NCBI GenBank assembly: GCA_965284645.1
Contig: OZ260106.1
Coordinates: forward strand, 144,265 to 208,264
DNA length: 64,000 nucleotides
Direction: 5' to 3'
Source of the DNA: an uncultured Bacteroidia bacterium
Lineage (GTDB): Bacteria > Bacteroidota > Bacteroidia > JAIBAJ01
Shown: piece by piece, positions 11,060 through 58,936 of the stretch
Position numbering within the stretch: position 1 is the stretch's first letter
How the letters are laid out: each line of letters opens with the position of its first letter
The notes under the pieces: model-generated
What the model saw: the letters and a program-made list of their open reading frames with translations, nothing else
Databases searched by the model: none
What the model was told of the DNA's origin: nothing
Program-made: the position numbers and the translations under genes

Positions 11060-11230
11060 TTTAGTTTTAGGGATTTTATTTTGATTTGGCGGGCCCCTTT
11101 TCGCCCAAAACCATTTACACCTTGATTTTACCATTCTGCTAGGCGAAAAGGTCACGCTATCGCCCATACTCCTCGGAAGGCTCCGTGCCTCCGCCTTCCT
11201 CCGGGGTATTTGGCTCTATCGTTGCCCGGA
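11060..11230 (+). repeat. Family-1 intergenic repeat, copy 1 (diverged)
   Basis: Box A is tttggcgggccccttttcgcccaaaacc (11086-11112). Core B is ggtcacgctatcgcc..ctcctcgg..ctccgtgcctccgc..ctctatcgttgcccgg (11150-11229). Confidence 0.7.
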
Positions 11231-11452
11231 GTGACGCTCATTAAATAAGCCTTGGTATAAGAATTAACCATTCTTCAAAAGACAATGCACGGTCAGTATC
11301 CCAGAAATGATTAATTTTTAGATACTCTTTCAAACGTGTCATTCTGTAAACCTAACCGGTGCTTGTACCGAAACAACTTGGGCATTTTTAGGCAAAGCAA
11401 AGCCAAGCAACCCTTTTGGAAGGGAGCTAATTGACCCAAAAAATAATTTAGC

Positions 11453-12076
11453 CTAATGCAGATCGGACGAAATCAGTCGGATAAATTCGCTTCTGGTTTT
11501 ATCCTCCATAAACTCACCTGTAAAAGCCGAGGTAGTGGTAACCGAATTTTGCTTTTGCACCCCGCGCATTTGCATACACAAGTGAGCACATTCGATTACT
11601 ACTGCCACTCCTTTGGGATGAAGTGTTTCTTGGATACAATCCCTGATTTCGTTGGTCAACCTTTCTTGCACTTGTAAGCGACGCGCAAAAGCATCCACTA
11701 CACGAGGAAGTTTACTGAGCCCAACGATTTGTCCATTTGGGATGTAGGCAATATGCGCTTTACCAAAGAAAGGTAGCATGTGGTGTTCGCAAAGCGAGTA
11801 CAATTCAATGTCTTTCACCAGCACCATTTGGCTGTAATCTTCCTTGAAAAGAGCCGATTTGATGATATCCCGCGGATCGATATCATAGCCGGAAGTTAGA
11901 AATTGCATGGCTTTTGCCGCACGTTCGGGCGTTTTCACCAAGCCTTCCCGGTCTGGATTTTCGCCAAGGTCTTTCAGAATAGATTGGTAATTGTCGGACA
12001 GGATTCTTGTTGTTTTCTCGTCATACCGGTCAATCTTTTCGTAGCCTTTGTTTTGTTTGTTTTGTCTGTATGTCAT
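11453..12076 (-). CDS. folE: GTP cyclohydrolase I FolE
   Basis: CEHHMLPF and [14 protein letters not shown] motifs, 207 aa. Confidence 0.95.
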
Positions 12077-12099
12077 AAAAATGGTAGCATGGTAAGGAG

Positions 12100-12519
12100 C
12101 TATTCGCCGCGGTATTCCACCGAGTTGTTTTCGGTTTCGAAAATACGGACAGCAAATAGTTTGGCATGGTGGGCCTGAATCAAAGGATCCAGAATTTTCC
12201 AGATTTCGATAGCCAAATTTTCGGTACTGGGTAAAATGCCCTTCATAAAAGGAACATCCACATTTAGGTTTTTGTGGTCTAGTTTCACAATGACCTCTTG
12301 CTGTATAAGAACAGCCAAATCTTTTAAATTGATAATAAAGCCTGTATCAGGATTGGGAGTACCTTTCACAGTAACCAAAAGTGTAAAATTATGTCCGTGC
12401 CAATTCGCATTGGCGCAGCGACCGAATACACGTTCGTTTTCATCTTCGCTCCAATCGGCACGGTGAAGGCGATGGGCAGCGTTAAAATGTTCCTTTCGGG
12501 TTAGATAAACTTCTGGCAT
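12100..12519 (-). CDS. queD: 6-carboxytetrahydropterin / 6-pyruvoyl-tetrahydropterin synthase family protein
   Basis: FNAAHRL and [11 protein letters not shown] zinc/catalytic motifs. The ATG at 12519 is preferred because the track start at 12528 is a TTG inside the promoter box. Confidence 0.85.
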
Positions 12520-12525
12520 AGCGGG

Positions 12526-12533
12526 CAAAGGTA
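12526..12533 (-). promoter_or_regulatory. Bacteroidota -7 promoter box TACCTTTG for queD-folE
   Basis: Exact TAnnTTTG match 6 nt upstream of the queD ATG. Confidence 0.4.
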
Positions 12534-12708
12534 GAATATTTGAGGTTCGCTCGAAGTTAAGAGATGTTATATGGTTTATCGCTTTTGCCTTCCGAATGCG
12601 TAATCTGGGTTGAAAATAAAAGGCTTGGGTTTGCTTCTTGCATTAAACATAGGAGAAAGGGGGAAGAATAGCGAAAGCCAAATTCTAGCACAAAGCTGGA
12701 ACGGAGGT

Positions 12709-12880
12709 CCGGGCAAGGATAGAGGCAGTCTAGCCCACAGGGATGCGTAGGCACGGAGCAGACCGAGGACTAGCGCCGAAAGCCTGGCCCCAGCCACCCC
12801 ATGCCAAAAGGTTTTATATCGATGCAACTGTATTGGGTGGCTGGGGGCCCGCCAAATCCCTTTCTTAAAAAACTAAGATT
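12709..12880 (-). repeat. Family-1 intergenic repeat, copy 2 (reverse orientation, subfamily beta)
   Basis: ccgggcaaggatagaggcagtctagcccacagggatgcgtaggcacggagcagaccgaggactagcgccgaaagcctggcccc, plus box A reverse complement gtattgggtggctgggggcccgccaaa (12830-12856). Confidence 0.8.
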
Positions 12881-12914
12881 AACAACATCCAGGTGAGACA
12901 GCAGGAACCTTGGT

Positions 12915-13766
12915 TTAGTTCCAATTTTCGGGCAAACCCAACTGCTTGCAGCTAAAGGCCCAGCATTGCTCCTTCAATCCAGGGGTTTGAGAAAATTTGC
13001 TTTGCCATTTGTGTTTGCATTTATCCCAATACTTTCCGTTTTCGCCTTCCACCTCGGGCGAACTGGCGAGGAAAATAGAAGTTGCGGCCCCTTGTTCGAT
13101 AGAAATGGCCACAAAATTTTTAATTAAGCCCCAAAAAAGTCGGGCATACCACGCCCCATTTTTGATTGCAATATCGGTTTTAACAACACCCGGGTGCAAG
13201 GCATTTACGGTGATATTGGTGCCCTTTAACCGCTCAGCTAATTCCATGGTAAACAACACATTACCCAATTTACTTTGCTCGTAGGCTTTGTACCCATTCC
13301 ATTTTTTAGATAAGGAAATATCGTCAAAATTCATTTTTCCATTGTAGTGGGAGTGAGAGGCTACATTCACGATTCGAGCTTTGGGTGCGGCTTTCAGCAA
13401 ATCCATCAATTCGTGCACCAACAACATATAGGTCAAGTGATTGGTTGCCCAGGTCATCTCGATTTTATCTTCCGAAAATTGCTGTTCGGTATAATATGCA
13501 CCAGCATTATTTACCAGCACATCCAGTTGGGAGCATTTACTTTTCACCTCTTGGGCTAGGTTTCTTACTTGGGTATGTGAACTCAAATTCGCAACAAAGC
13601 CAAGGTGATTGCCTTGCGGGAAGAGTGTTTTCAAGGAATCGATGGTTGAATTGACCTTGGTTTTATCGCGGCCCACCACGAAAATCGAATTTCCTTGTTT
13701 GGCCAAGGCCTTTGCCGTTTCGAACCCGATACCGGAAGTGGAACCTGTTATAAGAATGGTTTTCAT
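12915..13766 (-). CDS. SDR-family oxidoreductase
   Basis: TGSTSGIG cofactor motif and YEQSK (YxxxK) catalytic motif, 283 aa. Confidence 0.9.
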   Translation of the reverse strand: MKTILITGSTSGIGFETAKALAKQGNSIFVVGRDKTKVNSTIDSLKTLFPQGNHLGFVANLSSHTQVRNLAQEVKSKCSQLDVLVNNAGAYYTEQQFSEDKIEMTWATNHLTYMLLVHELMDLLKAAPKARIVNVASHSHYNGKMNFDDISLSKKWNGYKAYEQSKLGNVLFTMELAERLKGTNITVNALHPGVVKTDIAIKNGAWYARLFWGLIKNFVAISIEQGAATSIFLASSPEVEGENGKYWDKCKHKWQSKFSQTPGLKEQCWAFSCKQLGLPENWN

Positions 13767-13768
13767 GC

Positions 13769-14914
13769 TTAATTGAATAATTTAAAAGACAATTTTGGGT
13801 TGGCCTTGGAAGGCGGTAAGGAAGGCGATTGGGAATTTTTCAAATCCTTCAAAAACAGTTCCTTTTTGGTATCGGCAATGGTATTTAATTGGGCCGCATG
13901 TTGCAGTAAGGCCGGTTTAAGTTCATTTCTGGTGGCCAGAACGGTCCGCATTTTTTCGCCGATTAAATTGGGATTGTCGTTGTAGGACACCACCAAGGCC
14001 GCTTTCAAATCAGGTGCATCGTCGAGGATTGCATTGTTGTCGCTGCACAAACAAGGAATTCCGAGGGCCAAACATTCGGTAATCACTTGTCCCCAGCTTT
14101 CGCTAAACGACAAATACAGCGCCAAATCACATTGGGAAAGGGTTTCCAGAAATTCCTTATGGCTGCTGTGCTCGTGGTTTACGATACGGTGGTTCATTTC
14201 CCACATATCAAAATCATGGCCATGGCCCCACACATGCACTTCCGAATTTTCAAGCAACAAGGCAGCGGCCACTTGGTTATTGAGGTTTTTATTGAAATTA
14301 CTTACACCGGGAATGGCCACTTTAATGCGATCGGAACTCATTTTATTCCCTTGGGGCAAATCAGGTAAAACGCTTTTTAGGTTGAGGTTGTAACAGGTAG
14401 CTTTGGTAAGTTTCGACAAAGTTTCGGCCAATCCTTTTTTCACAAAGCCTAGTTTATCGATGGTTCCTTCGTTGGCCAAATGCACCAAACGGGAAAAAGC
14501 TTTTACGCGATGGGCATCTTCATGCAGTTCAGTTAGGGCACCATGAAAAATAGCGCCGGTAGTGCGACCCGAGATGTGTTTGTATTCGTGGAGAATATCC
14601 AAAAAATAAGTATGGGTTCCACTAGCGATTACTTGGTCAAAATTCAGCTCGGCCAGTACCATTATCAAGTCTAAGTTTTGCTGGTCGGTTAAAACGGAAT
14701 TGGAATAATAATGCGGTATTTCTAATACGGCTTCTCCAAATAATCCCTTGGTAGCATTGGTTACACCACGCCAATTCATACCAGTTGGCTTAGGAGAAAG
14801 CACCAAAACATTGGACAATTTCCTTATCTGGCTTACCTCCAACTTGAGCTGGGCCAACCAATCCTTCTGCTCTCGGCTTCGTTCAAGTCGTTTTTTTATT
14901 CTCTTAAGGGGCAT
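13769..14914 (-). CDS. Putative glycosyltransferase (GT-B/GT4-like C-terminal half)
   Basis: 381 aa. SESWGQVITECLALGIPCL resembles the E(x7)E region of GT4 enzymes. Overlaps the upstream GT2 gene by 11 nt. Confidence 0.55.
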   Translation of the reverse strand: MPLKRIKKRLERSREQKDWLAQLKLEVSQIRKLSNVLVLSPKPTGMNWRGVTNATKGLFGEAVLEIPHYYSNSVLTDQQNLDLIMVLAELNFDQVIASGTHTYFLDILHEYKHISGRTTGAIFHGALTELHEDAHRVKAFSRLVHLANEGTIDKLGFVKKGLAETLSKLTKATCYNLNLKSVLPDLPQGNKMSSDRIKVAIPGVSNFNKNLNNQVAAALLLENSEVHVWGHGHDFDMWEMNHRIVNHEHSSHKEFLETLSQCDLALYLSFSESWGQVITECLALGIPCLCSDNNAILDDAPDLKAALVVSYNDNPNLIGEKMRTVLATRNELKPALLQHAAQLNTIADTKKELFLKDLKNSQSPSLPPSKANPKLSFKLFN

Positions 14915-15926
14915 ATTTCAGGTAATTCTTTGCCGTAGACGGTGAACGGCTGTATTCAAATCCTATCTTCCAAAAATACGATTTTACCAATGACTTCATA
15001 AAATCTCTTTCCTCTTTTGCCTTTAACTCCTGCTCTGTGGCGGCCCGCCTCGATTTTGCTAAGCTAAAAAGCAATTCATCCAAGGCAAAATTGAACCAAA
15101 GCAACAAGATATAAATCAAAAAATAAGCATTTCCTTTCACCTTCTTCATACATAACCAACTTGAAATACTTACTTGAGCCACCCTGTTTTTGGAAGGGTT
15201 GGGACTTCCGCCATCGTAGTGCAAAACAGTGGTATCGGTATAAAAATAATGGCGCAACCCGTTTCTGCGCAGGCGTTCGCACCATTCAATATCTTCTCCG
15301 TACATAAAAAAATCTTCATCCAGCAACAAATCCATCTCTTTAAACAACTGGGCATTGAACAGCAAAAATGCACCGCCAATCCACTCCGATTCATGGCTTT
15401 TCCCATGCTGTTTAAGTCGAATGGCTTCGATATCGGGCGGTTTGATTCCCATTTTGGTTCGGAAAGCAATCACCAAAGCATTGGCATCCCAAAGTTTTTT
15501 GATAAAAGGGGTGCTGCTATTGGAATTGAATAGAACCTTTCCGGTATCGTCGACCATGGCGCAAGAGCTCACCCCAACCTGTCCTTTTCGCTCCAAAGCT
15601 TTATGGCATTGCAAAGAAACAGGAAGAGTGCCTTCAAAAAACTCCGTATCGGAATTCAAAATCAAGGCGTATTCGCCTGCTGCAGCGCGAATACCGATAT
15701 TATTGGCCCTTCCGAACCCGGCGTTGTAACCGGTTTGAATCCATTTCACCTCGGGGAATTCGGATTTCACCATTTGCTCGCTTTGATCTTTGGAATCATT
15801 GTCTACCACAATCACCTCCACAGCCACCGGAGCCGAATACCTAAAAATAGATTTCAAGCAATTCCTGAGCAGGTCGCAGGTATTATAATTTACAATAATA
15901 ATCGAAACGTCGGGCTGGTCCACCAA
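14904..15926 (-). CDS. Family 2 glycosyltransferase
   Basis: VSIIIVNYNT...VVDNDSKD...NAGFGRANN...LNSD motifs typical of GT2 (rhamnosyltransferase-like). Confidence 0.9.
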   Translation of the reverse strand: MVDQPDVSIIIVNYNTCDLLRNCLKSIFRYSAPVAVEVIVVDNDSKDQSEQMVKSEFPEVKWIQTGYNAGFGRANNIGIRAAAGEYALILNSDTEFFEGTLPVSLQCHKALERKGQVGVSSCAMVDDTGKVLFNSNSSTPFIKKLWDANALVIAFRTKMGIKPPDIEAIRLKQHGKSHESEWIGGAFLLFNAQLFKEMDLLLDEDFFMYGEDIEWCERLRRNGLRHYFYTDTTVLHYDGGSPNPSKNRVAQVSISSWLCMKKVKGNAYFLIYILLLWFNFALDELLFSLAKSRRAATEQELKAKEERDFMKSLVKSYFWKIGFEYSRSPSTAKNYLKYAP

Positions 15927-15927
15927 A

Positions 15928-16386
15928 TCAAGGATTTAAACGGGCAAAGGCAATAAAATCAATTATAGGCAAAGTATCGACCAAGGGTTTCATATCCGAC
16001 AGAATTTGTGCCCGGTGATGGCTTCCATGATTGGCTACATGGGTTAACACATCGGCCATTGTATTCGAAAACGCATCGCCTTTGATACTTTTATAGTGTA
16101 ATGGATTTAAAAAACTTTCTTCTGCATACGAACTTATAAATTCTTGCATGGCTTCTTGGTTAGCCAAGGCCAATTCCCTAAGCTCATCGAAGGAAAGAAT
16201 GTCGAAAACACCTCCGGAAAAGTGCTTTTCTGTAAACCGAGCCAGCCAAATAGCTTGTGCGGCCACCACATGGGAAATCAATTTCCGGGACTTCTCGGTT
16301 ACTTCAGGCGATTTGGTCAAAAAATCAAGAATAATGGTGTTGGCCCAATAATCGTATTGGTAGAGTCGGCTAAAGTAAGAGCGCAT
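15928..16386 (-). CDS. DinB-family protein
   Basis: YDYWAN...HVVAAQ...HVANHGSHHRAQI metal-binding His pattern of the DinB four-helix bundle. Confidence 0.85.
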   Translation of the reverse strand: MRSYFSRLYQYDYWANTIILDFLTKSPEVTEKSRKLISHVVAAQAIWLARFTEKHFSGGVFDILSFDELRELALANQEAMQEFISSYAEESFLNPLHYKSIKGDAFSNTMADVLTHVANHGSHHRAQILSDMKPLVDTLPIIDFIAFARLNP

Positions 16387-16573
16387 AAGTTTTTGTTTTG
16401 GAGTTGATGTTGTTTTTATTCAGCGACAAACGTAACAATATCCTCTTTCATTCGGCACCCAAAAGTAGAATTGTTGGGCCTAAAAAAAGCCTACGCATGC
16501 CACCCATTTTGCAAGTTAAAGGCTACGCTATATTTTTTTAACAAAGGAAACAAAAAACACAAACTTACCAAGC

Positions 16574-16581
16574 TATCTTTG
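16574..16581 (+). promoter_or_regulatory. -7 promoter box TATCTTTG for yidC
   Basis: Exact TAnnTTTG match 21 nt upstream of the yidC ATG. Confidence 0.4.
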
Positions 16582-16602
16582 CCGCCCGATTTTCGATAAC
16601 GC

Positions 16603-18465
16603 ATGGACAGAAATTCAATCATAGGTCTGGTTTTAATCATGGCCATTTTTATTGGCTTTAGCATTTACAATCAGCCTACTAAAGAAGAAATTGAGGCAGC
16701 AAAACGCAAACAGGATTCCATAGCCCAAGTGGAAAAACAAAAGGAAACCCTGGCCAAAAAAGCAACGCAAGCAGCCAAACCTCTCGAACAACTACCCAAA
16801 GACTCGGTTTTACCCGATTCGGTTTTGGTAAAACAATACGGTGCCTTCGGTTCCAACCTGATTGGTAAAGAAGAAATCTACACCTTGGAAAACGAGGTAA
16901 TGAAAATCAGCGTTTCATCCAAAGGCGGACGCGTAAAATCAGTAGAACTGAAAAAGCACAAGGATTACAACGACAAACCTTTGCAGTTGTTTAGTGGCGA
17001 CGATAACAAATTCGGACTGAGCTTTTTTGAAAACAACCGCGTAGTGCATACCGGCGATTTGTATTTCAAACCTTCGGGCAATACCATCAAAGTAAGCGGA
17101 AAGGATTCGTCCAATTTTGCCATTCGCCTCGAGGTAAGCCCCGAGAAATACCTTGAATATGTGTATACCTTGAAAGGTGACGAGTATTTGGTAGGTTTTA
17201 AGGTAAACTTTGTAGGACTTCAAGATGTAATTGAAGAACGCAGCAATACCTTGGATTTGGAATGGTTGGTGAATCAACCCCAATTGGAGAAAAGTCTAAA
17301 AAATGAACGTGCCGCCAGTACCGCTTATTGGCAGTTTGAAGACGAAGAAACCGACTATATCAGCGAAGGGAAATCCGAGAAAAAAACCATACCTAACAAA
17401 TTAAACTGGATTGCCTTTAAACAACAGTTTTTCAGCTCCGTTTTCTTAGCCCCAAAATCCATTGCTGGCCCTATCAATTTGGAGACCAAAATGGACGAGA
17501 ATTCGGCTTATGTTAAAACCATTTCGGCCACTTTCCCTGTTCCGTTTGGCCACAAACCTACCGAAACCTATGCCGGAGCCTTTTATTTTGGACCAAACCA
17601 CTACGAGACCCTTTCCAATTACAACGTGCAAAAACTGGTTCCGCTTGGCTGGGGCATTTTAGGATGGATCAACCGGGTGGTGATTTGGATTTTCTATGGC
17701 TTGGAAAAACTTGACCTTTCTTATGGCATTATCATCCTGTTATTAACCATCATCGTTAAAGTGGTGCTTTTCCCACTCAACTACAAATCTTACCTCAGCG
17801 GTGCCCGGATGCGTGTGTTGAAGCCAGAGATTGACGAATTGAACAAAAAATACGAAGGCAAAGACCCGATGGAAAAACAACAGGCTCAGATGGCCTTGTA
17901 TCGCAAAGCCGGCGTCAATCCCTTGGGAGGTTGTTTGCCTATGTTGTTGCAACTGCCTATTACCTTGGCTGTATTCCGCTTTTTCCCGGCAGCCATTGAA
18001 TTGCGCCACCAACCCTTTTTGTGGGCTACCGACCTTTCCAGCTACGACAGTATTTGGGATTTTGGTTATGTGCCAATCATTAACAGCATTTATGGCGAGC
18101 ACGTAAGCTTGTTTGCTATTCTAATGGCTATTACAACTGTTCTGTACTCCATGGTCAACATGCAAATGCAACCTTCGGGCGACGACATGATGGCCAAACA
18201 AATGAAAATTATGATGTATGTAATGCCGGTAATTTTCTTGGGAGTAATGAACAGTCAATCCAGCGGACTTTGCTATTACTACACTTTAGGGAACTTGCTA
18301 ACTTTCGGACAGCAATATGCCTTTAGGTTCCTTGTCGACGAAAAAGCCATTCGGGCAAAAATCGAAGACAACAAGAAAAAACCCGTTACGAAATCCAATT
18401 TTCAAAAACGCTTGGAAGATATGGCCAAACAACGCGGTTACAACCTTCCCAAAAACAATAAATAA
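16603..18465 (+). CDS. yidC: Membrane protein insertase YidC (long Bacteroidota form)
   Basis: N-terminal TM, large periplasmic domain, and a C-terminal 5-TM core with [12 protein letters not shown]. Confidence 0.95.
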
Positions 18466-18491
18466 TCATTTACAAAACAAATACTAAGCAC

Positions 18492-19283
18492 ATGCAAAAC
18501 CACGAAATCGACTATAAAATCATCGGTGAGGAAATGCAAGTTGTAGAAATCGAACTTGATCCTCAAGAAACGGCCATTGCGGAGGCGGGCAATTTTATGA
18601 TGATGGAAGATGGGGTCAATATGGAAACCATTTTCGGTGACGGCTCCCAACAAAATAGCGGTGGCCTTATGAACAAATTGTTCTCAGCCGGAAAACGTCT
18701 TTTGGTAGGCGAAAGTCTTTTCATGACAGCCTTTACCAATGCCGGACAGGGCAAAAAACGGGTTCACTTTGCTGCACCTTATCCGGGCAAAATCGTACCG
18801 ATGGACCTTTCCCAATTGGGTGGAAAAATCATTTGTCAGAAAGATGCCTTTTTATGCGCTGCCAAAGGAGTGAGCATTGGCATCGAGTTCCAAAAACGCT
18901 TGGGCACCGGACTTTTTGGTGGCGAAGGTTTTATCATGGAAAAGTTGGAAGGTGATGGTATGGCCTTCGTTCATGCGGGCGGACATATCATTGAAAAAGA
19001 GCTTCAACCGGGCGAATTGATCAAAATAGACACCGGTTGTATCGTAGCCTTTACCAAAAATGTAGATTACGATATTCAGTTTGTAAAAGGCATAAAAAAC
19101 ATGGTTTTTGGCGGTGAAGGCTTGTTTTTTGCAACCCTTCGCGGCCCCGGAAAAGTGTGGATCCAATCCTTGCCTGTAAGCCGTTTGGCCGGACGAATTT
19201 TGGAATATGGCACCCACCGTGGCAAAGAAGAAGGCAGTATCCTAGGTGGTTTGGGCAATTTGCTCGACGGCGACGGAATTTAG
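18492..19283 (+). CDS. TIGR00266/AIM24-family protein
   Basis: 263 aa. [21 protein letters not shown]...[21 protein letters not shown] pattern typical of the AIM24 (DUF124) family. Confidence 0.8.
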
Positions 19284-19300
19284 TCACAGCATACAATCTC

Positions 19301-19342
19301 AAAATAGCCCTGGATCGTTTTGGTCTGGGGCTATTTTTTTTG
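19301..19342 (+). terminator. Putative rho-independent terminator
   Basis: aaaatagccc...gggctat stem followed by a T8 run. Confidence 0.5.
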
Positions 19343-19356
19343 ACAATAATTATAGA

Positions 19357-19539
19357 ACAGATTCTAATTTTTAATTTATCATTTTTAATTTCTTCATGCG
19401 TGCCCCCGTCCGCCAAAACCGGCATCACCTTGAAATGAACCAGTTACCAAGGGCGTCCGGGTCAGGCTATCCACTGCAAGTCCTCGGTCTGCTCCGTGCC
19501 TACGCATCCCTGTGGGCTTTTCGTTGCTATCCTTGCCCG
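19357..19539 (+). repeat. Family-1 intergenic repeat, copy 3 (forward, subfamily alpha)
   Basis: AT-rich leader ttctaatttttaatttatcatttttaatttcttc. Box A is catgcgtgcccccgtccgccaaaacc. Core B is ccgggtcaggctatccactgcaagtcctcggtctgctccgtgcctacgcatccctgtgggcttttcgttgctatccttgcccg. Confidence 0.85.
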
Positions 19540-19708
19540 ATGCCCGCCGTATATAGCTTGGGTAGAAGTATGAGGCCGCAAACCTCGCCTTAACTTTTTC
19601 GCCAAACGTTTGAAAAAAGGGGTGTTATACCGATTATAAATCTGTAATAGTCCAATTATGCTTCGCCATAATTTGCCAAAACAGCTTTTATATCGGCATT
19701 TACCAATT
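19536..19708 (+). repeat. Family-2 mosaic repeat, copy a (modules X+Y)
   Basis: cccgatgcccgccgtatatagcttgggtagaagtatgaggccgcaaacctcgccttaactttttcgcc...ggggtgttatacc (module X) recurs at 28564. gattataaatctgtaatagtccaattatgcttcgcc...cagcttttatatcgg (module Y) recurs at 63219. Confidence 0.85.
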
Positions 19709-20348: not shown

Positions 20349-23300
20349 CTAATTCTTAATAAACATAGCTCTGCTTTGTATACCAGCTAAAGTTAGTGTT
20401 ATGCAATATGCGCCTGATGCTATAGTTGAGGTGTTTAAATCAAACTGTTTGCCCGACTTATTAACCTCAGCCATTATTAGTTTTCCATACATATCATAAA
20501 CCTCTATAGCTATATTATTAGCAGGCTTGTTAAGGCTAATGGTTATATTTTCGATAGCGGGGTTTGGGTACAGAAAAAAGTTATCTCGAACGCCTTGTTC
20601 AATTATGGCTGTTACGTTTTGGTTTACTATAGTTGAAATTGTATCAGAACAACCCGCATTGCTAACTATAGCTATTAGTTCGCAACTGGCTGTATCATCC
20701 CAAATAACATTAATAGAATTAGTTCCTTGTCCCGTAGTTATAGTGCCACAATTTGTAATCCATTGGTAGGCATCGGCATTAAAATCTAATGTAACAAAAT
20801 AGGCATAAGGTTGAAGTGTATCTACCACTGTTGGTCCGTATATTGAATCTAACGGTGTTAGTGCAGGTACAACGTTTATAGACGTACTGGCATTGGTTGT
20901 GCAGCCTTGTAAATTAGACACAGCAACATTGTAGTTAGTAGTTTGTGTAGGTGACACAGTTATTGAGCTATTGGTAGAGCCTGTGCTCCATAAATAGCTA
21001 TCACCACCAGTAGCAGTTAATACTACTGAGCTGCCACTACAAACTGTAGCAGAAGGGGTAATGGTTGCTACAGGAGTTGGATTTACTGTTACTGTAATGT
21101 TGGTAATAGCAGTGCAGCCGTTTCCATTGTTTGATGTTACCGTATATGTTGTGGTTTGGGTTGGCGATACAGTTATACTTGCTGAAGTTGCACCATTGCT
21201 CCAGCTGTAATTATTTCCACCACTAACAGTTAGCGTGGTGCTATTACCTGAACACAATGTATTAGTACCTGAAATACTTAAAACAGGCCCTGGTAAAACA
21301 GTTACTGTTACTGAGCTGTCAGAAGAACAACCACTGCCATTATCTACTGTTACATTATAGGTAGTAGTTTGGTTAGGCGATACAGTTATGGCATTTGCAG
21401 TGGCCCCTGTATTCCATGTGTAGGATACGCCTCCTGTGGCTGTTAACGTTGTAGTACTACCTTGACAAATAGAAGTAACACCAGCAATGTTTATTGAGGG
21501 TGAATTTGATACAGTTACCGTTTGACTAGCTGATGCAGAGCAGCCATTGCCATTAAAAACAGTTACCGTGTATGTAGTAGTTTGGTTAGGGGCTACGGTA
21601 ATAGAGCTTGATGTTGAACCGTTGCTCCATACATAGCTGTTGCCTCCACTAGCCGTTAGGGTTGTGTTAGCACCTAAACAAATGCTATTTACACCAGTAA
21701 TACTTGGGCTTGGCGATGGGCTAACTGTTACGGTTTGGCTAGTAGATGCACTACAACCATTTCCATTGGTTACTGTCACTGTGTAAGTGGTTGTTTGGTT
21801 TGGCGATACAGTTATAGAAGCTGTTGTAGCTCCAGTACTCCATACATAGCTTGTATCTCCGCTGGCAGTTAAGGTGGTGCTGGCACCTGAACAGATGCTA
21901 TTTGTACCAGAAATACTTGGGGTTGGGGCTGGATTAACTGTTACCGTTTGGTTGGTTGAAGCGGTACAACCGTTGCTGCCTGTGGCTGTTACGCTATAGG
22001 TGGTTGTTTGGGATGGAGAAACAGATATTGAAGCTGTTGTAGCCCCAGTACTCCATACATAGCTATTACCACCACTGGCGGTTAATGTTGTGCTGGCACC
22101 TGAACAGATGCTATTTGTACCAGAAATACTTGGGGTTGGTGCTGGATTTACCGTTACTGCTTGGCTAACAGAAGCTGTACAACCGTTGCCATTTGTTGCT
22201 GTTACGGTATAAGTAGTGGTTTGGGTGGGCGATACGGTTATAGAAGCTGTTGTAGCTCCAGTACTCCATACATAGCTTGTACCTCCACTGGCAGTTAATG
22301 TGGTGCTATTGCCTGCACAAATAGTGTTAACGCCAGAAATGCTAGGTGTCGGCAGTGGATTTACTGTTACTGTTCGGGTAGTGTTGCCTGTACAACCATT
22401 GATACCTGTTGCTGTTACGGTATAGGTAGTGGTTTGAGTGGGCGATACGGTTATAGAAGCTGTTGTAGCTCCAGTACTCCATACATAGCTTGTACCTCCG
22501 CTGGCAGTTAATGTGGTGCTGTTTCCTGAACAAATAGTATTAGTGCCTGTTATGCTTGGTGTGGGTGCTGGATTAACTGTTACTGTTATGGTAGCATTAG
22601 CCGTACAACCGTTGCTGCCTGTGGCTGTTACGCTATAGGTGGTTGTTTGAGTAGGGGATACCGTTATAGAAGCGGTAGTAGCCCCAGTACTCCATACATA
22701 GCTGTTGCCACCACTGGCGGTTAACGTGGTGCTGTCACCTGAACATATACTGTTAGTACCTGAAATACTTGGTGTTGGTGATGGGTTTACTGTTACTACC
22801 TGACTAACAGAAGCTGAACATCCATTGCTATTGGTAGCGGTTACGGTATAGGTAGTAGTTTGGGTAGGCGATACAGTAATAGAGCTTGATGTAGAACCAT
22901 TGCTCCATGCATAGCTGCTTCCGCCGCTGGCAGTTAAAGTAGTGCTATTGCCTGCGCAAATAGTGTTAACGCCCGAAATGCTAGGTGTTGGCAGTGGATT
23001 AACCGTTACTGTTCTAGTAGTGTTGCCTGTACAACCATTGATACCTGTTGCTGTTACGGTATAGGTAGTGGTTTGAGTGGGCGATACGGTTATAGAAGCT
23101 GTTGTAGCTCCAGTACTCCATACATAGCTTGTACCTCCGCTGGCAGTTAATGTGGTGCTGTTTCCTGAACAAATAGTATTAGTGCCTGTTATGCTTGGTG
23201 TGGGTGCTGGATTAACTGTTACTGTTATGGTAGCATTAGCCGTACAACCGTTGCTGCCTGTGGCTGTTACGCTATAGGTGGTTGTTTGAGTAGGGGATAC

Positions 23301-26300
23301 CGTTATAGAAGCGGTAGTAGCCCCAGTACTCCATACATAGCTGTTGCCACCACTGGCGGTTAGTGTTGTACTGGCACCTGAACAGATACTGTTAGTGCCT
23401 GAAATACTTGGTGTTGGTGCTGGGTTTACTGTTACTGCCTGACTAACAGAAGCTGAACAACCATTGCTATTGGTAGCAGTTACGGTATAGGTAGTAGTTT
23501 GGGTAGGCGATACAGTAATAGAGCTAGATGTAGAGCCATTGCTCCATACATAGCTGGTACCACCACTGGCAGTTAAGGTGGTGCTGGCACCTGCACAAAT
23601 AGCGTTAACACCCGAAATGCTAGGTGTTGGCAGTGGATTTACTGTTACTGTTCGGGTAGTGTTGCCTGTACAACCATTGCCATTTGTTGCTGTTACGGTA
23701 TAAGTAGTGGTTTGGGTGGGTGAAACGGTTATAGAAGCTGTTGTAGCTCCAGTACTCCATACATAGCTTGTACTTCCGCTGGCAGTTAAGGTGGTGCTGG
23801 CACCTGAACAGATGCTATTTGTACCAGAAATACTTGGGGTTGGGGCTGGATTAACTGTTACCGTTTGGTTGGTTGAAGCGGTACAACCGTTGCTACCTGT
23901 TGCTGTTACGGTATAGGTAGTTGTTTGGGTGGGCGATACGGTTATAGAAGCTGTAGTAGCTCCAGTACTCCATACATAGCTATTACCACCACTGGCGGTT
24001 AATGTTGTGCTGGCACCTGAACAGATGCTATTAGTACCCGAAATACTTGGAGTAGGTAGTGGGTTTACCGTAACGGTTACGTTATCAGTGCAGCTAACTC
24101 CATTTTCAGTAACTGTGAGTGTATAAGTAGTAGTTTGTGTGGGACTAACATTAATAGTAGGTGTAGTAGCCCCATTACTCCATAAATATTGGGTGTTTGA
24201 TAAAGTATAAAGTTGTAGTACTTCTGAGGATGTTAATGCTCTATTATACAATGTAACATCATCTAATTTACCTGCAAAGTTTGCTGCATTGTTTTGATTG
24301 TTGTCGCCCAAAGTAAAGCCTGTTACAAAGTTGTCTGGACCTCCCATTGTAGTTGCTCTGCGTTGCGAACCTGTGTACCAGTTTCCGTCTGATAAAATCG
24401 TTGTTAATTGAACTCCATTGATGTATACTTTAACATCAGTACCATCGTAGCTTACTAGTAAATAATTCCAAGTTCCTGGGGAGATAAATCCATTTGTTTT
24501 ATAATCAATAGCAACGTCCCCAATACTTCCCATAGTATTAGCATTATATCGACCAAAAGCTATATCTGTTGTTGTATCGTTGGGTTGCCCTATTCTAGCG
24601 TAAACTCTTTTAAATGGGCTTACGTTATTACCATCAAATGAAAAAAAGACATTAGATGAGAGACCAAAGCCACCTCCATTATTTCCAGAAGCATCCCGAT
24701 TAAACCATAGCCCAACAGAAAAAGGGTTATTACCATCAATTAATTGGCGAAGGGCATTGTTATTATTGGCTATACGGGCACTCCCGTTAAAGTAATATGA
24801 AGTATTTGCTGCACCAGTTCTGTCAGTAGATAAAGTGGCAGAAGTTACCGTTCCATTATTCCCATTACCACTGGCATCATTAGCATTGCCGCAAAAGGGG
24901 TAGTAAGCCACTAAGCCCGTTTGTAAATTACTTGGCAAATTGGTTGAGGCACAAGCTTGTATTCCGCTGCTGCTGCTTGTATCGGCACTTAAGGTAATAC
25001 TTTGCCCTGCACAAATGGTGGTATCGTTTTGTTGTATTTGGGCGGTGCATGCGCCATTATATAAATCTGTTATTTCTTGTTGGGTTAAGGCGCGATTCCA
25101 AAAGCCAACATCATCAATTTTACCAATAAATTGTTGGTTTAAAACACTTGATCCAATAAAAAAATTTATACCTGTTCCGGTATTTAAAATGGTGCTTAGA
25201 TTAAAAGAACTGAACACGGTACTTAATAGAACTCCATCGAGATATACCTTTATTGCAGAAATAGTATTTCCAAAAGAGGGGTCATAAACCAAAACAAGAT
25301 TTCGCCATGAACCAAGTGTGTTAGATGAATAAAATACTTGACTATTACTTATGTCCATTCCGGCTTTGTCAGCCCCTATTAATGGTATAAAGGTACGGCC
25401 AGGTGAATTTTGCCCATATCCACCTAAAACCCAATCAGCTGACGGTCCATTACTTTGACTCTGTAAAAACCATAGAGATATAGACCGAGCACTCGTACCG
25501 GTAGGTCCAACTAGAGGTGTTTGAATATTTTGTGGAGTACTTCCATTATTAGCAAAACTGTAAGCACTATTAGCGTTCCCAAACCTGTCAGCAGTCAGCG
25601 TTGCACCGTTTACTGTACCGTTGTTGCCGTTGCCGCTCTCATCGCTAGCGTTACCACAAAATGGCCAGTACCCCACTAAACCACTAGTTGGAACATACGA
25701 TGGTAAACAGGTGCTTGAAGGTAATGAAGAATTATACAAGTTTGTTACCTCTTGCTGTGTTAAAGCTCTATTCCAAATGCCGATATCATCAGCCTTTCCT
25801 TTAAACCATCTATACCAGTCTACAGGTGCTGTATTTGTAAACTCTTTCCCTATATATAAAGGTTCAGATGAATTTATTAATGTTAAAGTTGTATTTGTTG
25901 TTTGTTCCAAAACACCATTTCTGTATAATGAAATATTAGTAGGTGTTTTTACTGCAATAATATTAATCCATGTGTTTAACGGAAGGGGAGCGTTTGAAAC
26001 TACAAAGGTTTGAGATGTTCCATTATGATTTACATGAGAACAATTGTTACTAAGATCCTGGTATACACTATTAATTGAATACCCTGTTTGCCAACCGGCC
26101 CCTCTTGGCTTGCCTAATATAGTTCTTACAGCGTCTGTATTTCCACTTCCATTAGGAAATTGAGGAGTTGAATAGTCAGGAATTTGCACCCAAACAGAGA
26201 TTGTGTAAGTTGTTGTAAAATCAAGTGAATTATTATCAGGAATACTAATAAAATCATTTACACCATCAAAGCTATATGCTGCATTAGTGTTACCAAACCT

Positions 26301-26408
26301 ATCGGTAGTTAGGGTTGCACCGTTCACGGTTCCGTTATTGCCGTTGCCACTTAAATCATTGGCATTACCTGTAAAAGGCCACCAGCCAACAAGGCCATTG
26401 GTAGGCAC
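20349..26408 (-). CDS. Giant T9SS-secreted adhesin-like protein: 3 LamG (Laminin_G_3-like) modules, 15 Ig-like repeats and a Por/T9SS C-terminal sorting domain
   Basis: The module GLVGWWPFxGNANDxSGNGNNGTVNGATLTxDRFGN...WNRALTQQE occurs three times. There are 15 units of 71 aa (SISGTNSICSGASTTLTASGGNSYVWSTGATTASITVSPTQTTTYTVTA..GC....TVTVNPxPTP). The C-terminus FFLYPNPAIENITISL...IEVYDMYGKLI...GAYCITLTL is T9SS type-A CTD-like. The track start is a GTG with no signal peptide. A proper signal peptide (ATG at 26479) lies one frame away across a T9 tract (see findings). Confidence 0.9.
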   Translation of the reverse strand: MPTNGLVGWWPFTGNANDLSGNGNNGTVNGATLTTDRFGNTNAAYSFDGVNDFISIPDNNSLDFTTTYTISVWVQIPDYSTPQFPNGSGNTDAVRTILGKPRGAGWQTGYSINSVYQDLSNNCSHVNHNGTSQTFVVSNAPLPLNTWINIIAVKTPTNISLYRNGVLEQTTNTTLTLINSSEPLYIGKEFTNTAPVDWYRWFKGKADDIGIWNRALTQQEVTNLYNSSLPSSTCLPSYVPTSGLVGYWPFCGNASDESGNGNNGTVNGATLTADRFGNANSAYSFANNGSTPQNIQTPLVGPTGTSARSISLWFLQSQSNGPSADWVLGGYGQNSPGRTFIPLIGADKAGMDISNSQVFYSSNTLGSWRNLVLVYDPSFGNTISAIKVYLDGVLLSTVFSSFNLSTILNTGTGINFFIGSSVLNQQFIGKIDDVGFWNRALTQQEITDLYNGACTAQIQQNDTTICAGQSITLSADTSSSSGIQACASTNLPSNLQTGLVAYYPFCGNANDASGNGNNGTVTSATLSTDRTGAANTSYYFNGSARIANNNNALRQLIDGNNPFSVGLWFNRDASGNNGGGFGLSSNVFFSFDGNNVSPFKRVYARIGQPNDTTTDIAFGRYNANTMGSIGDVAIDYKTNGFISPGTWNYLLVSYDGTDVKVYINGVQLTTILSDGNWYTGSQRRATTMGGPDNFVTGFTLGDNNQNNAANFAGKLDDVTLYNRALTSSEVLQLYTLSNTQYLWSNGATTPTINVSPTQTTTYTLTVTENGVSCTDNVTVTVNPLPTPSISGTNSICSGASTTLTASGGNSYVWSTGATTASITVSPTQTTTYTVTATGSNGCTASTNQTVTVNPAPTPSISGTNSICSGASTTLTASGSTSYVWSTGATTASITVSPTQTTTYTVTATNGNGCTGNTTRTVTVNPLPTPSISGVNAICAGASTTLTASGGTSYVWSNGSTSSSITVSPTQTTTYTVTATNSNGCSASVSQAVTVNPAPTPSISGTNSICSGASTTLTASGGNSYVWSTGATTASITVSPTQTTTYSVTATGSNGCTANATITVTVNPAPTPSITGTNTICSGNSTTLTASGGTSYVWSTGATTASITVSPTQTTTYTVTATGINGCTGNTTRTVTVNPLPTPSISGVNTICAGNSTTLTASGGSSYAWSNGSTSSSITVSPTQTTTYTVTATNSNGCSASVSQVVTVNPSPTPSISGTNSICSGDSTTLTASGGNSYVWSTGATTASITVSPTQTTTYSVTATGSNGCTANATITVTVNPAPTPSITGTNTICSGNSTTLTASGGTSYVWSTGATTASITVSPTQTTTYTVTATGINGCTGNTTRTVTVNPLPTPSISGVNTICAGNSTTLTASGGTSYVWSTGATTASITVSPTQTTTYTVTATNGNGCTASVSQAVTVNPAPTPSISGTNSICSGASTTLTASGGNSYVWSTGATTASISVSPSQTTTYSVTATGSNGCTASTNQTVTVNPAPTPSISGTNSICSGASTTLTASGDTSYVWSTGATTASITVSPNQTTTYTVTVTNGNGCSASTSQTVTVSPSPSPSITGVNSICLGANTTLTASGGNSYVWSNGSTSSSITVAPNQTTTYTVTVFNGNGCSASASQTVTVSNSPSINIAGVTSICQGSTTTLTATGGVSYTWNTGATANAITVSPNQTTTYNVTVDNGSGCSSDSSVTVTVLPGPVLSISGTNTLCSGNSTTLTVSGGNNYSWSNGATSASITVSPTQTTTYTVTSNNGNGCTAITNITVTVNPTPVATITPSATVCSGSSVVLTATGGDSYLWSTGSTNSSITVSPTQTTNYNVAVSNLQGCTTNASTSINVVPALTPLDSIYGPTVVDTLQPYAYFVTLDFNADAYQWITNCGTITTGQGTNSINVIWDDTASCELIAIVSNAGCSDTISTIVNQNVTAIIEQGVRDNFFLYPNPAIENITISLNKPANNIAIEVYDMYGKLIMAEVNKSGKQFDLNTSTIASGAYCITLTLAGIQSRAMFIKN
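20853..24190 (-). repeat. Coding tandem array: 15 full units plus 1 partial unit of 213 bp, with a 639-bp higher-order duplication
   Basis: Unit period is 213 bp (71 aa). By eye, 22381-22723 is identical to 23020-23362 (offset 639 = 3 units). Confidence 0.9.
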
Positions 26409-29440: not shown

Positions 29441-29643
29441 CATAGGTTTCCAAATATTGAAACTTTTTTGGTCGTTTAATTTACAAAACAACCTTTTAAC
29501 TCAAATTCCGCATTAGAAATGCAAGTACAAAGGCAACTAAGTAAAGTAGTTCAGATTTAAAAACCCTCCTATTGATCAATTTGAGATTAAAAAACATAGC
29601 AAACAACCAGACATGAAATACCACACTTCAATACTTCAGCTAC

Positions 29644-29848
29644 AACCGGGCACGAAGAACCCCGGGCAACGATAGAAGCGTAAAGCCCACAGGGATGCGG
29701 AGGCACGGAGCAGACCGAGGACTTGCAGCGGATAGCGTGACCCGGACGCTGCTGGCACAAAACTAAGCTTTACAGGTAGAACTTAAGGCAGCGGAAGGGG
29801 GCCCGCATGAAGAAATTAAAAATGATAAATTAAGAATTAAAAATTGAA
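29644..29848 (-). repeat. Family-1 intergenic repeat, copy 4 (reverse, subfamily alpha)
   Basis: aaccgggcacgaagaaccccgggcaacgatagaagcgtaaagcccacagggatgcggaggcacggagcagaccgaggacttgcagcggatagcgtgacccgg, then gcggaagggggcccgcatgaagaaattaaaaatgataaattaagaattaaaaa. The ends match the reverse complement of copy 3. Confidence 0.85.
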
Positions 29849-40788: not shown

Positions 40789-40970
40789 CCTAATTTCTAA
40801 TTCTCTAATTCCTAATTTCTAATTCTTTTGGCGTGTCCCATTCGCCCAATACCCTTTTCCCGTTGAAATTAGATTTGTGCAAGGCGAATGGTCGGGCTAT
40901 CCACTGCAAGTCCTCGGTCTGCTCCGTGCCTCCGCATCCCTGTGGGCTTTTCGTTTCTATCCCTACCCGG
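40789..40970 (+). repeat. Family-1 intergenic repeat, copy 5 (forward, subfamily alpha)
   Basis: Leader cctaatttctaattctctaattcctaatttctaattc. Box A is ttttggcgtgtcccattcgcccaataccc. Core B is ggtcgggctatccactgcaagtcctcggtctgctccgtgcctccgcatccctgtgggcttttcgtttctatccctacccgg. Confidence 0.85.
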
Positions 40971-41100
40971 AGAGAGTCGTGCTTGCTTCCATTGTACCTG
41001 ATGAACAAACAGTAGCAAAGGAAAACAGCCGTCCAAAAGGCCTAAACCAAGCTACATCCGGCAAAAAAGAATACGAATTTTATACTTTCATAACCTTTAC

Positions 41101-58367: not shown

Positions 58368-58530
58368 GTTTGGCGGGTCCCCTTGCGCCCAAAACCAGGT
58401 GGCCATTACATAGGCATAGGTGCCCGGCGCAAGGGTCGCGCTTTCGCTAGTACTCCTCGGTCTGCTCCGTTCCTCCGCAGCCCTGTGGGGTACCACGCTC
58501 TATCGCTACCCGGGGTTCTTCGTGCCCGGT
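58368..58530 (+). repeat. Family-1 intergenic repeat, copy 7 (forward, diverged)
   Basis: gtttggcgggtccccttgcgcccaaaacc, then ggtcgcgctttcgctagtactcctcggtctgctccgttcctccgcagccctgtggggtaccacgctctatcgctacccggggttcttcgtgcccggtt. Confidence 0.8.
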
Positions 58531-58936
58531 TTTTGGTGAAGTACAGGCAGTGGTTTTTAAATTTAAATTCATTTCATTTTGAAATTCAAAAAAATTAAAA
58601 CACCCATTTCCTTCAGCTTTAGTTATTAGAAAATAAAAATTGGATATGGTTTTTTTTCTAATCTATACAAAGGTCTTCCGTATTAAAATTTTGGCATTTT
58701 TCAATTTCTTTTGGAAAGTTAAAATATTTCATTTGTGATAAAGAATGGCATGCCAAAAAGCTAACTTTTCCAATTTTTAAAAAAACTTACAATTACCAAA
58801 AATTCCACAACACATTATTTGCCAATATTTTAGACATAAAAATACTTACCTTAAAATACCTATTTTTAAAAATATTTGAGAAATTAAAATTTTTCATTTT
58901 TGGACAATTCCAATTTAAAAAAATCAAATAGTAACT

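Follow-up and report, generated by a model that had tools for sequence, protein, structure and literature searches.

The window, a stretch of 64,000 nucleotides, carries seven copies of a structured intergenic repeat set among ordinary housekeeping genes. By Pfam, the genes beside the copies are murD, folE, a PTPS gene, a short-chain dehydrogenase gene, an AIM24-family gene, an Nramp gene, dnaB, and a DUF3467 gene. The closest relatives of the DnaB protein are found in Bacteroidia. A covariance model, R1, built on 50 copies with a structure derived by hand, re-found all seven repeats at full length (117–143 bits, E 1e-24 to 1e-30), at the places and on the strands of the original prediction. 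All seven lie between ORFs, as had been proposed, and one is directly 3′ of murD. The ORFs that run through the copies had been judged spurious and are indeed unnecessary to explain them.

Each copy contains the predicted box A, variable spacer, and core B, and a reading of the sequence gives the same block order at all seven loci. A leader with TAATTTC-type words, also part of the predicted architecture, is present in three of the seven copies; the general feature is instead a T-rich 5′ flank. A 22-base core occurs six times in the window, five times exactly and once with two mismatches, against an expectation of zero in shuffles. The seventh copy, at 11060, is divergent. The switch from AAG:CTT (alpha type) to TAG:CTA (beta type) is real and corresponds to pair 96:245 of alignment A2, which is U:A in 75 copies and A:U in 30. 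The proposed division into two subfamilies is too narrow, since more than two exist and copy 7 has a third arm type.

The copies and their associated features are, in order:

11086–11229, plus strand: copy 1, divergent; R1 135.7 bits; 116 bases past the murD stop, in the convergent spacer ahead of folE
12709–12855, minus strand: copy 2, beta type; R1 128.9 bits; between the PTPS gene and the short-chain dehydrogenase gene; P1 stem CCCCAGCCACCC/GGGTGGCTGGGG, duplex −29.7 kcal/mol
~19357–19394, plus strand: T-rich leader of copy 3, with TAATTT words
19395–19540, plus strand: copy 3, alpha type; R1 123.8 bits; 3′ of the AIM24-family gene
19456–19541, minus strand: Flavo-1 match of copy 3, 32.3 bits
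29600–29661 (approximate), minus strand: module B of copy 4, an optional 3′ module; GGTTCTTCGTGCCCGGTT...
29661–29746, plus strand: Flavo-1 match of copy 4, 32.0 bits
29662–29809, minus strand: copy 4, alpha type; R1 117.2 bits; 3′ of the Nramp gene
~29810–29848: leader of copy 4
40789–40827, plus strand: T-rich leader of copy 5, with TAATTTC/TAATTC words
40828–40970, plus strand: copy 5, alpha type, the locus given in the original prediction; R1 139.2 bits; flanked by a 115-aa ORF and the dnaB 3′ end
40886–40976, minus strand: Flavo-1 match of copy 5, 33.6 bits
48025–48170, minus strand: copy 6, beta type; R1 141.0 bits; in a convergent spacer, adjoining the DUF3467 gene
58370–58513, plus strand: copy 7, third arm type GTACTCC/GGGGTAC; R1 142.6 bits
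~58514–58560: module B of copy 7

Between copies 3 and 4 there is an ORF of 2019 aa (20349–26408, minus strand).

Fold and kinship to Flavo-1

Each copy folds as a three-way junction composed of a terminal helix (P0), a second helix (P1), and a long irregular hairpin. P0 is 5 bp long and pairs CGGGY of box A with RCCCG at the 3′ end. P1, of 7–12 bp, pairs the remainder of box A (CCC..CGCC) with GGCG..GGG directly 5′ of core B. It closes the 35–55-nt "spacer" as a loop and is hypervariable. Box A, predicted as one block, is present as such and actually consists of two half-helices serving P0 and P1. The long hairpin corresponds to core B and contains two 3×3 internal loops and a paired tip. The minimum-energy fold of copy 7 is a three-way junction on either strand.

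The fold is supported by covariation. Among 107 model-aligned copies, 92.5% of the cells are paired, compared with 77.1% in shuffles, and 23 of the 30 pairs have changed on both sides (462 cells), a level reached by none of 500 shuffles. The conserved stem with compensatory change that had been suspected is therefore borne out. Slid registers likewise fall far below the observed pairing, and the seed alignment agrees. Mutual information between alignment columns reveals Watson–Crick switches at many pairs, one of which links box A to the far 3′ end. P0 pair 9:262, for example, is C:G in 65 copies and U:A in 33. P1 comes in several versions that are each perfectly complementary, including CCCTTTTCGC/GCGAAAAGG, CCCTACCGCC/GGCGGTAGGG, and the CCCCAGCCACCC/GGGTGGCTGGGG stem of copy 2. 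A P1 arm forms a more stable duplex with its own partner (−17.2 kcal/mol) than with the arms of other copies (−13.1 kcal/mol). RNAalifold recovers the fold only partly from raw MAFFT alignments; P0 and P1 are derived from mutual information and arm-swapping.

Two features of the predicted core B look different in this larger set. The complementary CCGGG/CCCGG ends thought to close it show no covariation, being paired in 67.2% of cells against 66.8% in shuffles. Its "invariant centre" is mostly base-paired; some copies, as well as the sister species, have different hairpins in its place. In about a dozen copies, the tip is replaced by a 13-bp stem of copy-specific sequence with a loop of ~55 nt.

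The repeat had been assigned to no known class, and Rfam at its gathering threshold (42 bits for RF01705) indeed gives no match in the window. Below that threshold, however, Rfam cmscan identifies core B as the Flavo-1 hairpin (RF01705) on the opposite strand. At permissive thresholds, three window copies match with 32.0–33.6 bits, and the other four have no match at E ≤0.05. The alignments span model positions 1–76, with all outer stems paired; the tips of the copies vary in length. Scores of 33.7–36.9 bits are obtained for copies of the sister species and of another family. Seven loci elsewhere in the source genome exceed the cut-off (44.7–57.2 bits); they constitute a subfamily of their own, with a short P1 and the P0/P1/hairpin plan of the window copies. 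Conversely, a search with R1 turns up single copies in further families of the class; there, P1 is a mini-hairpin of 3–7 bp and P0 is GCGUG/CACGC. The bases flanking the 2010 Flavo-1 seed alignment also match those of the element. The sub-threshold matches, the short-P1 loci, the common plan, and the seed flanks together indicate a divergent, enlarged form of Flavo-1. The Rfam model covers just one arm of a larger fold.

Distribution in the genome and in sister species

The source genome (G000) is a single contig of 4.43 Mb with 40% G+C. An nhmmer search with a profile of the seven window copies yields 508 copies, 457 of them nearly full length; a 27-kb duplication inflates the count slightly, by a few copies. 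The seven predicted copies, all real, are thus just a sample of the family. With a unit of ~145 bases, the family makes up ~1.7% of the genome. The matches are split between 258 on the plus and 250 on the minus strand, and their density is even along the whole genome at ~45–55 copies per 400 kb. No replication-strand or replichore bias is seen, plus and minus counts being equal in every 400-kb bin. Large near-identical blocks of 27 kb lie near the contig ends (G000:C1:59110-86459 and 4403650-4430998; also 1-31456) and may be real duplications or assembly overlap.

Spacer types and orientations were counted with crude ORF calls (ORFs of at least 100 or 150 aa, overlaps resolved by length). Convergent spacers account for 15% of all spacers and for 34–35% of copies. 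The copies are indifferent to the direction of the flanking genes: every spacer type contains both orientations, and unpaired copies in co-directional spacers are found 84 times with the gene direction and 67 times against it. A riboswitch or cis-regulatory leader was rejected because the neighbours are unrelated housekeeping genes and both orientation and spacer type vary.

Adjacent copies are arranged tail-to-tail ('+ −') in 80 pairs and head-to-head ('− +') in two. The '+ −' pairs are present in all spacer types, and their members are as similar to each other as random copies are (0.68 versus 0.69). Neither gene direction nor inverted duplication can therefore explain the pairs. A composite transposon was also rejected for the '+ −' pairs of the window, as the enclosed genes are ordinary housekeeping genes and the pair members belong to unrelated subfamilies. 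The median identity of a copy to its nearest relative in the genome is 85.5%, indicating that the copies are old. Near-identical copies are absent, so nothing points to current mobility.

The 5′ flank is T-rich, with 88–94% T at positions −3 and −2 and 50–65% back to about −18, and includes TAATTTC-type runs in some copies. The 3′ flank has no T bias and may carry one of several modules. Module B (GGTTCTTCGTGCCCGG...) follows ~72 copies genome-wide, including window copies 4 and 7, and is composed of a small GC hairpin and then T5 on the element strand. A second module (CAYCTCCGCATAGCAT...) follows ~46 copies, and purine-rich simple repeats are a further type. Different tail-to-tail pairs have linker modules in common.

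Several larger units include or adjoin the element. A composite unit of ~550 bp (G000:C1:266925-267458) recurs at ~20–30 similar loci. It consists of one element subfamily with module B, short repeats, and then a second subfamily in inverted orientation; the short repeats, of purine-rich AGTAGTGAGAAA type and CCCATAACTCATATC type, form an imperfect palindrome. Other repeat families adjoin the element in the window at ~29480–29640 and at many other loci, such as G000:C1:395110-395290. One is a ~190-bp unit with inverted ends, TTTAACCCAGATTACGCATTAGAAAT ... ATTTCTAATGC.GAAT.TGGGTT, and another contains AACCCAAATTAATCAATAGGAGGATTTA.

Two other species of the genus, G001 and G002, were compared. 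G002 has at least 150 copies and G001, which is 99% complete, has none. In a class sample of 151 genomes, at least one match is present in 46, all of short-armed forms; counts per genome are lower bounds, as up to 21 candidates were scored in each, and are usually at least 1–13 and in one genome at least 20. The exact 22-base core has no match outside the source genome among 185,579 species genomes, so the apical sequence is specific to this genome. The tail-to-tail bias is also observed in G002.

The copies are often at the same gene borders in G000 and G002. When the flanks of 30 G002 element clusters were mapped onto G000, 31 of the 48 mapped gene borders (65%) also carried a copy there, compared with 14% of random gene ends. 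The orientation is the same at 23 of these 31 borders, and copies are retained even at borders where the flanks of one G002 pair have separate locations in G000. G002 has copies in the same orientation 3′ of murD, 3′ of the AIM24 orthologue, and on the 3′ side of dnaB. The window block at 12.9–19.3 kb, with the short-chain dehydrogenase gene at one end and the AIM24 gene at the other, has the opposite direction in G002 (window 11060–19540 versus G002:C31:23266-33349). Copies bound this block in both genomes, and a copy is still found downstream of both murD and the AIM24 gene despite the inversion. In G002, folE and the PTPS gene are 50 kb away.

Positional orthologues allow the descent of single copies to be followed. 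Eleven of 22 rank among the ~10% most similar copies, indicating that many were truly inherited in place. Between orthologues, 104 base pairs have changed on both sides and are still paired, against a single wobble step. Exchange affects tips and P1 blocks as whole units, and the apical sequence is uniform in G000 and different in G002. The block swaps, the double changes, and the uniform apical sequence point to copy-to-copy conversion or replacement and not to stepwise mutation. The surrounding spacer is unalignable between the two species in the one case inspected, that of dnaB.

Origin and role of the copies

The element is best read as a lineage-amplified, enlarged variant of a Flavo-1-type structured intergenic repeat of the class Bacteroidia, behaving as a dispersed DNA repeat and not as a small-RNA gene. 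It is probably an old repeat of REP/BIME-like character that is kept and homogenised by copy-to-copy exchange and is tolerated or used at gene ends, an interpretation we hold with some but not strong confidence. Amplification would have taken place in the common ancestor of the source species and G002. Spread may have relied on an enzyme that reads the folded single strand and places it beside T-rich DNA without target duplication. Conversion between copies would then have kept them alike, and the copies may have served as substrates for rearrangement. Where a copy is transcribed, from either strand, its fold may incidentally stabilise or punctuate RNA ends.

Several observations stand against this interpretation. 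No mobilising enzyme was found among the Y1, TnpB, and reverse transcriptase candidates; near-identical copies, target-site duplications, and true terminal inverted repeats beyond the 5-bp P0 are all absent; and one invariant U:G pair is strand-specific. In addition, the long retention of the fold favours a function, and retention at conserved gene borders could equally be due to host-level selection at each locus.

Such selection is central to an alternative that is on balance unlikely but deserves serious weight, namely that the copies are functional RNA elements selected per locus, either cis-acting 3′-end or intercistronic structures or a small-RNA family, and that the fold is one of RNA. 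The fold is kept at gene borders common to two species even though the dnaB spacer around it can no longer be aligned, copies are enriched at convergent gene ends, and the hairpin and T5 of module B accompany ~72 of them. The strand clues, however, are inconsistent. The U:G pair is invariant on the plus strand as originally read and is C.A on the Rfam strand, and it is the Rfam strand that has the purine-rich 3×3 internal loops typical of structured RNA; the two clues thus contradict each other on which strand would be the RNA. Folding energies hardly beat those of shuffles on either strand (z +0.3 to −2.5). G:U intermediates are almost absent: outside the invariant pair, wobble amounts to 12 G:T against 6 A:C, which are equally rare. 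The scarcity of wobble intermediates, along with the indifference to gene orientation (84 versus 67), favours a structure that is read on DNA or on either strand. G001, moreover, lives without any copy. The variable P1 loops were considered as guides and rejected, since their matches elsewhere in the genome do not exceed chance (21 of 440 versus 9 of 440 shuffled).

Published work on Flavo-1 also bears on both sides. The motif was rated as likely RNA, neither cis-regulatory nor a switch, with 239 representatives (Weinberg et al. 2010, PMC2864571). The Flavo-1 matches of Flavobacterium psychrophilum, by contrast, do not follow transcripts, lying in sense, in antisense, or outside transcribed regions (PMC9723704).

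A broader proposal, which we put forward as speculation that would rather surprise us if it held throughout, is that Flavo-1-type elements are the Bacteroidia counterpart of REP/BIME. The junction would be selected at each border as a punctuation mark working on either strand, protecting or delimiting transcript ends as RNA and binding a host factor as extruded DNA. It would have been spread by a junction-recognising enzyme, and templated conversion, not point mutation, would keep renewing the hypervariable P1 and tip hairpins.

A further alternative holds that the copies are strict REPs moved by a genome-encoded REP-associated Y1 tyrosine transposase (RAYT), and a search for such a partner had been suggested. 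The genome contains three Y1_Tnp genes, and the tail-to-tail doublets resemble REPINs or BIMEs. None of the three genes, however, is flanked by the element, the nearest copy being 1.8–4.3 kb away. The best of them is flanked by small CAACCCCGNAGGGGTTG-type hairpins, a repeat different from the element, and adjoins a tandem array of 62-bp units with CCCCGAAGGGG hairpins. A related Y1 gene in G014 is flanked by similar small hairpins, indicating that this enzyme has its own repeats. Across genomes, a Y1 gene is present in 43 of 45 genomes with the element versus 71 of 105 without it (relatedness not controlled). Of 19 non-genus genomes with Y1 surroundings retrieved, three have a Flavo-1-type copy less than 2 kb from a Y1 gene, though matches in these genomes number from at least one to at least about 12. 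The association is a weak lead. It is countered by G001, with seven Y1 matches and no element, by G009, with the element and no Y1 match, and by the absence of replication-strand bias. A 200-aa Y1-like protein was also rejected as partner, as it is present in G001, was not found in G002, and shows no association with the element across 150 genomes. Mobilisation by a resident RAYT is therefore quite improbable.

The hairpin array lies ~10 kb before the window (G000:C1:133086-134054), directly upstream of a 159-aa Y1 gene (IS200-like, RAYT-type), and contains ~16 units of 61–62 bp, each with a CCCCGAAGGGG hairpin. Array and gene look like a genuine REP–RAYT pair distinct from the element. In another genome (G013:C1:735000-739500), four sub-threshold Acido-Lenti-1 (RF01687) matches of 26.5–31.5 bits lie beside a Y1 transposase gene, and Acido-Lenti-1 may be another REP-like repeat filed as RNA.

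Other enzymes fare no better. A non-autonomous element of IS200/IS605 type was rejected, as the TnpB domain has no match in the genome and replication-strand bias is absent. The only reverse transcriptase in the genome (345 aa, G000:C1:3776635-3780204) sits between a PRTase-CE-domain gene and a REase-ARP/PD-(D/E)XK nuclease gene. With these neighbours, the cluster looks like a defence-type system, a retron or related, unconnected with the element, and the enzyme was rejected as a partner.

Scarcely credible is a classical MITE origin, in which the copies would descend by deletion from a cut-and-paste insertion sequence and move via terminal inverted repeats with target duplication: they are small, high-copy, and intergenic with an AT-rich flank on one side, and true MITE families coexist in the genome, but the longest word common to the 5′ and 3′ flanks of 298 simple copies is distributed as in permuted pairs, terminal complementarity is limited to the 5-bp P0, which covaries rather than being conserved, covariation of internal stems is not expected of transposase-binding ends, and a self-comparison of the genome (multi-copy ORFs only partly annotated) reveals no repeat of 600 bp or more with element ends around a transposase.

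Implications and comparison with known repeats

Since 2010, Rfam has carried Flavo-1 as a "likely small RNA", and a genome with ~1.7% of an enlarged form provides unusually rich comparative material. On this material, the catalogued hairpin is just one arm of a three-way junction, and the element behaves as a dispersed repeat independent of orientation. Its copies stay at gene borders across species while trading sequence, and they bound rearranged blocks. For annotation, the copies account for spurious ORFs, would be missed at the Rfam cut-off, and mark likely breakpoints of genome rearrangement. What is new here is the enlarged, highly amplified form; the Flavo-1 motif itself was already known.

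Correia/NEMIS, RUP/BOX, and ERIC are non-coding repeats of ~100–200 bp with predicted folds, which lie in transcribed spacers and can affect neighbouring transcripts. They have terminal inverted repeats and usually target duplications. The element is likewise short and non-coding with a predicted fold, but lacks both terminal inverted repeats beyond P0 and target duplications, which were looked for.

REP/BIME sequences of Proteobacteria are high-copy intergenic palindromic units that are enriched between convergent genes and form inverted doublets with linker modules. They cause no target duplication and are found at rearrangement breakpoints. The element resembles them in copy number, intergenic position, palindromic character, and enrichment between convergent genes. 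The excess of '+ −' over '− +' pairs (80 versus two) and the small set of linker modules are also REP/BIME- and REPIN-like, as are the absence of target duplication and the presence at rearrangement breakpoints. Its unit, however, is a 145-nt three-way junction instead of a hairpin of roughly 35 nt, and members of its doublets, unlike those of REPINs, are no more alike than random copies. In a further difference from REP/REPIN, the element was not found in association with a RAYT, and the RAYT-like gene of the genome has its own small hairpin repeats.

The comparison with Flavo-1 is the closest. Both have the long hairpin with the stem and internal-loop pattern GGGAUAGAAxCGxAAAxCC ... UUGxAGxGGAxAGCCCGA (Rfam strand), and both are intergenic in Bacteroidota and occur in multiple copies. 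The element is larger (145 versus 76 nt), adding the terminal helix and a second arm with a 35–55-nt loop, and its apical stem has its own genome-specific sequence. It is also far more numerous, with ~500 copies in this genome against matches ranging from at least one to at least 20 in the other genomes sampled.
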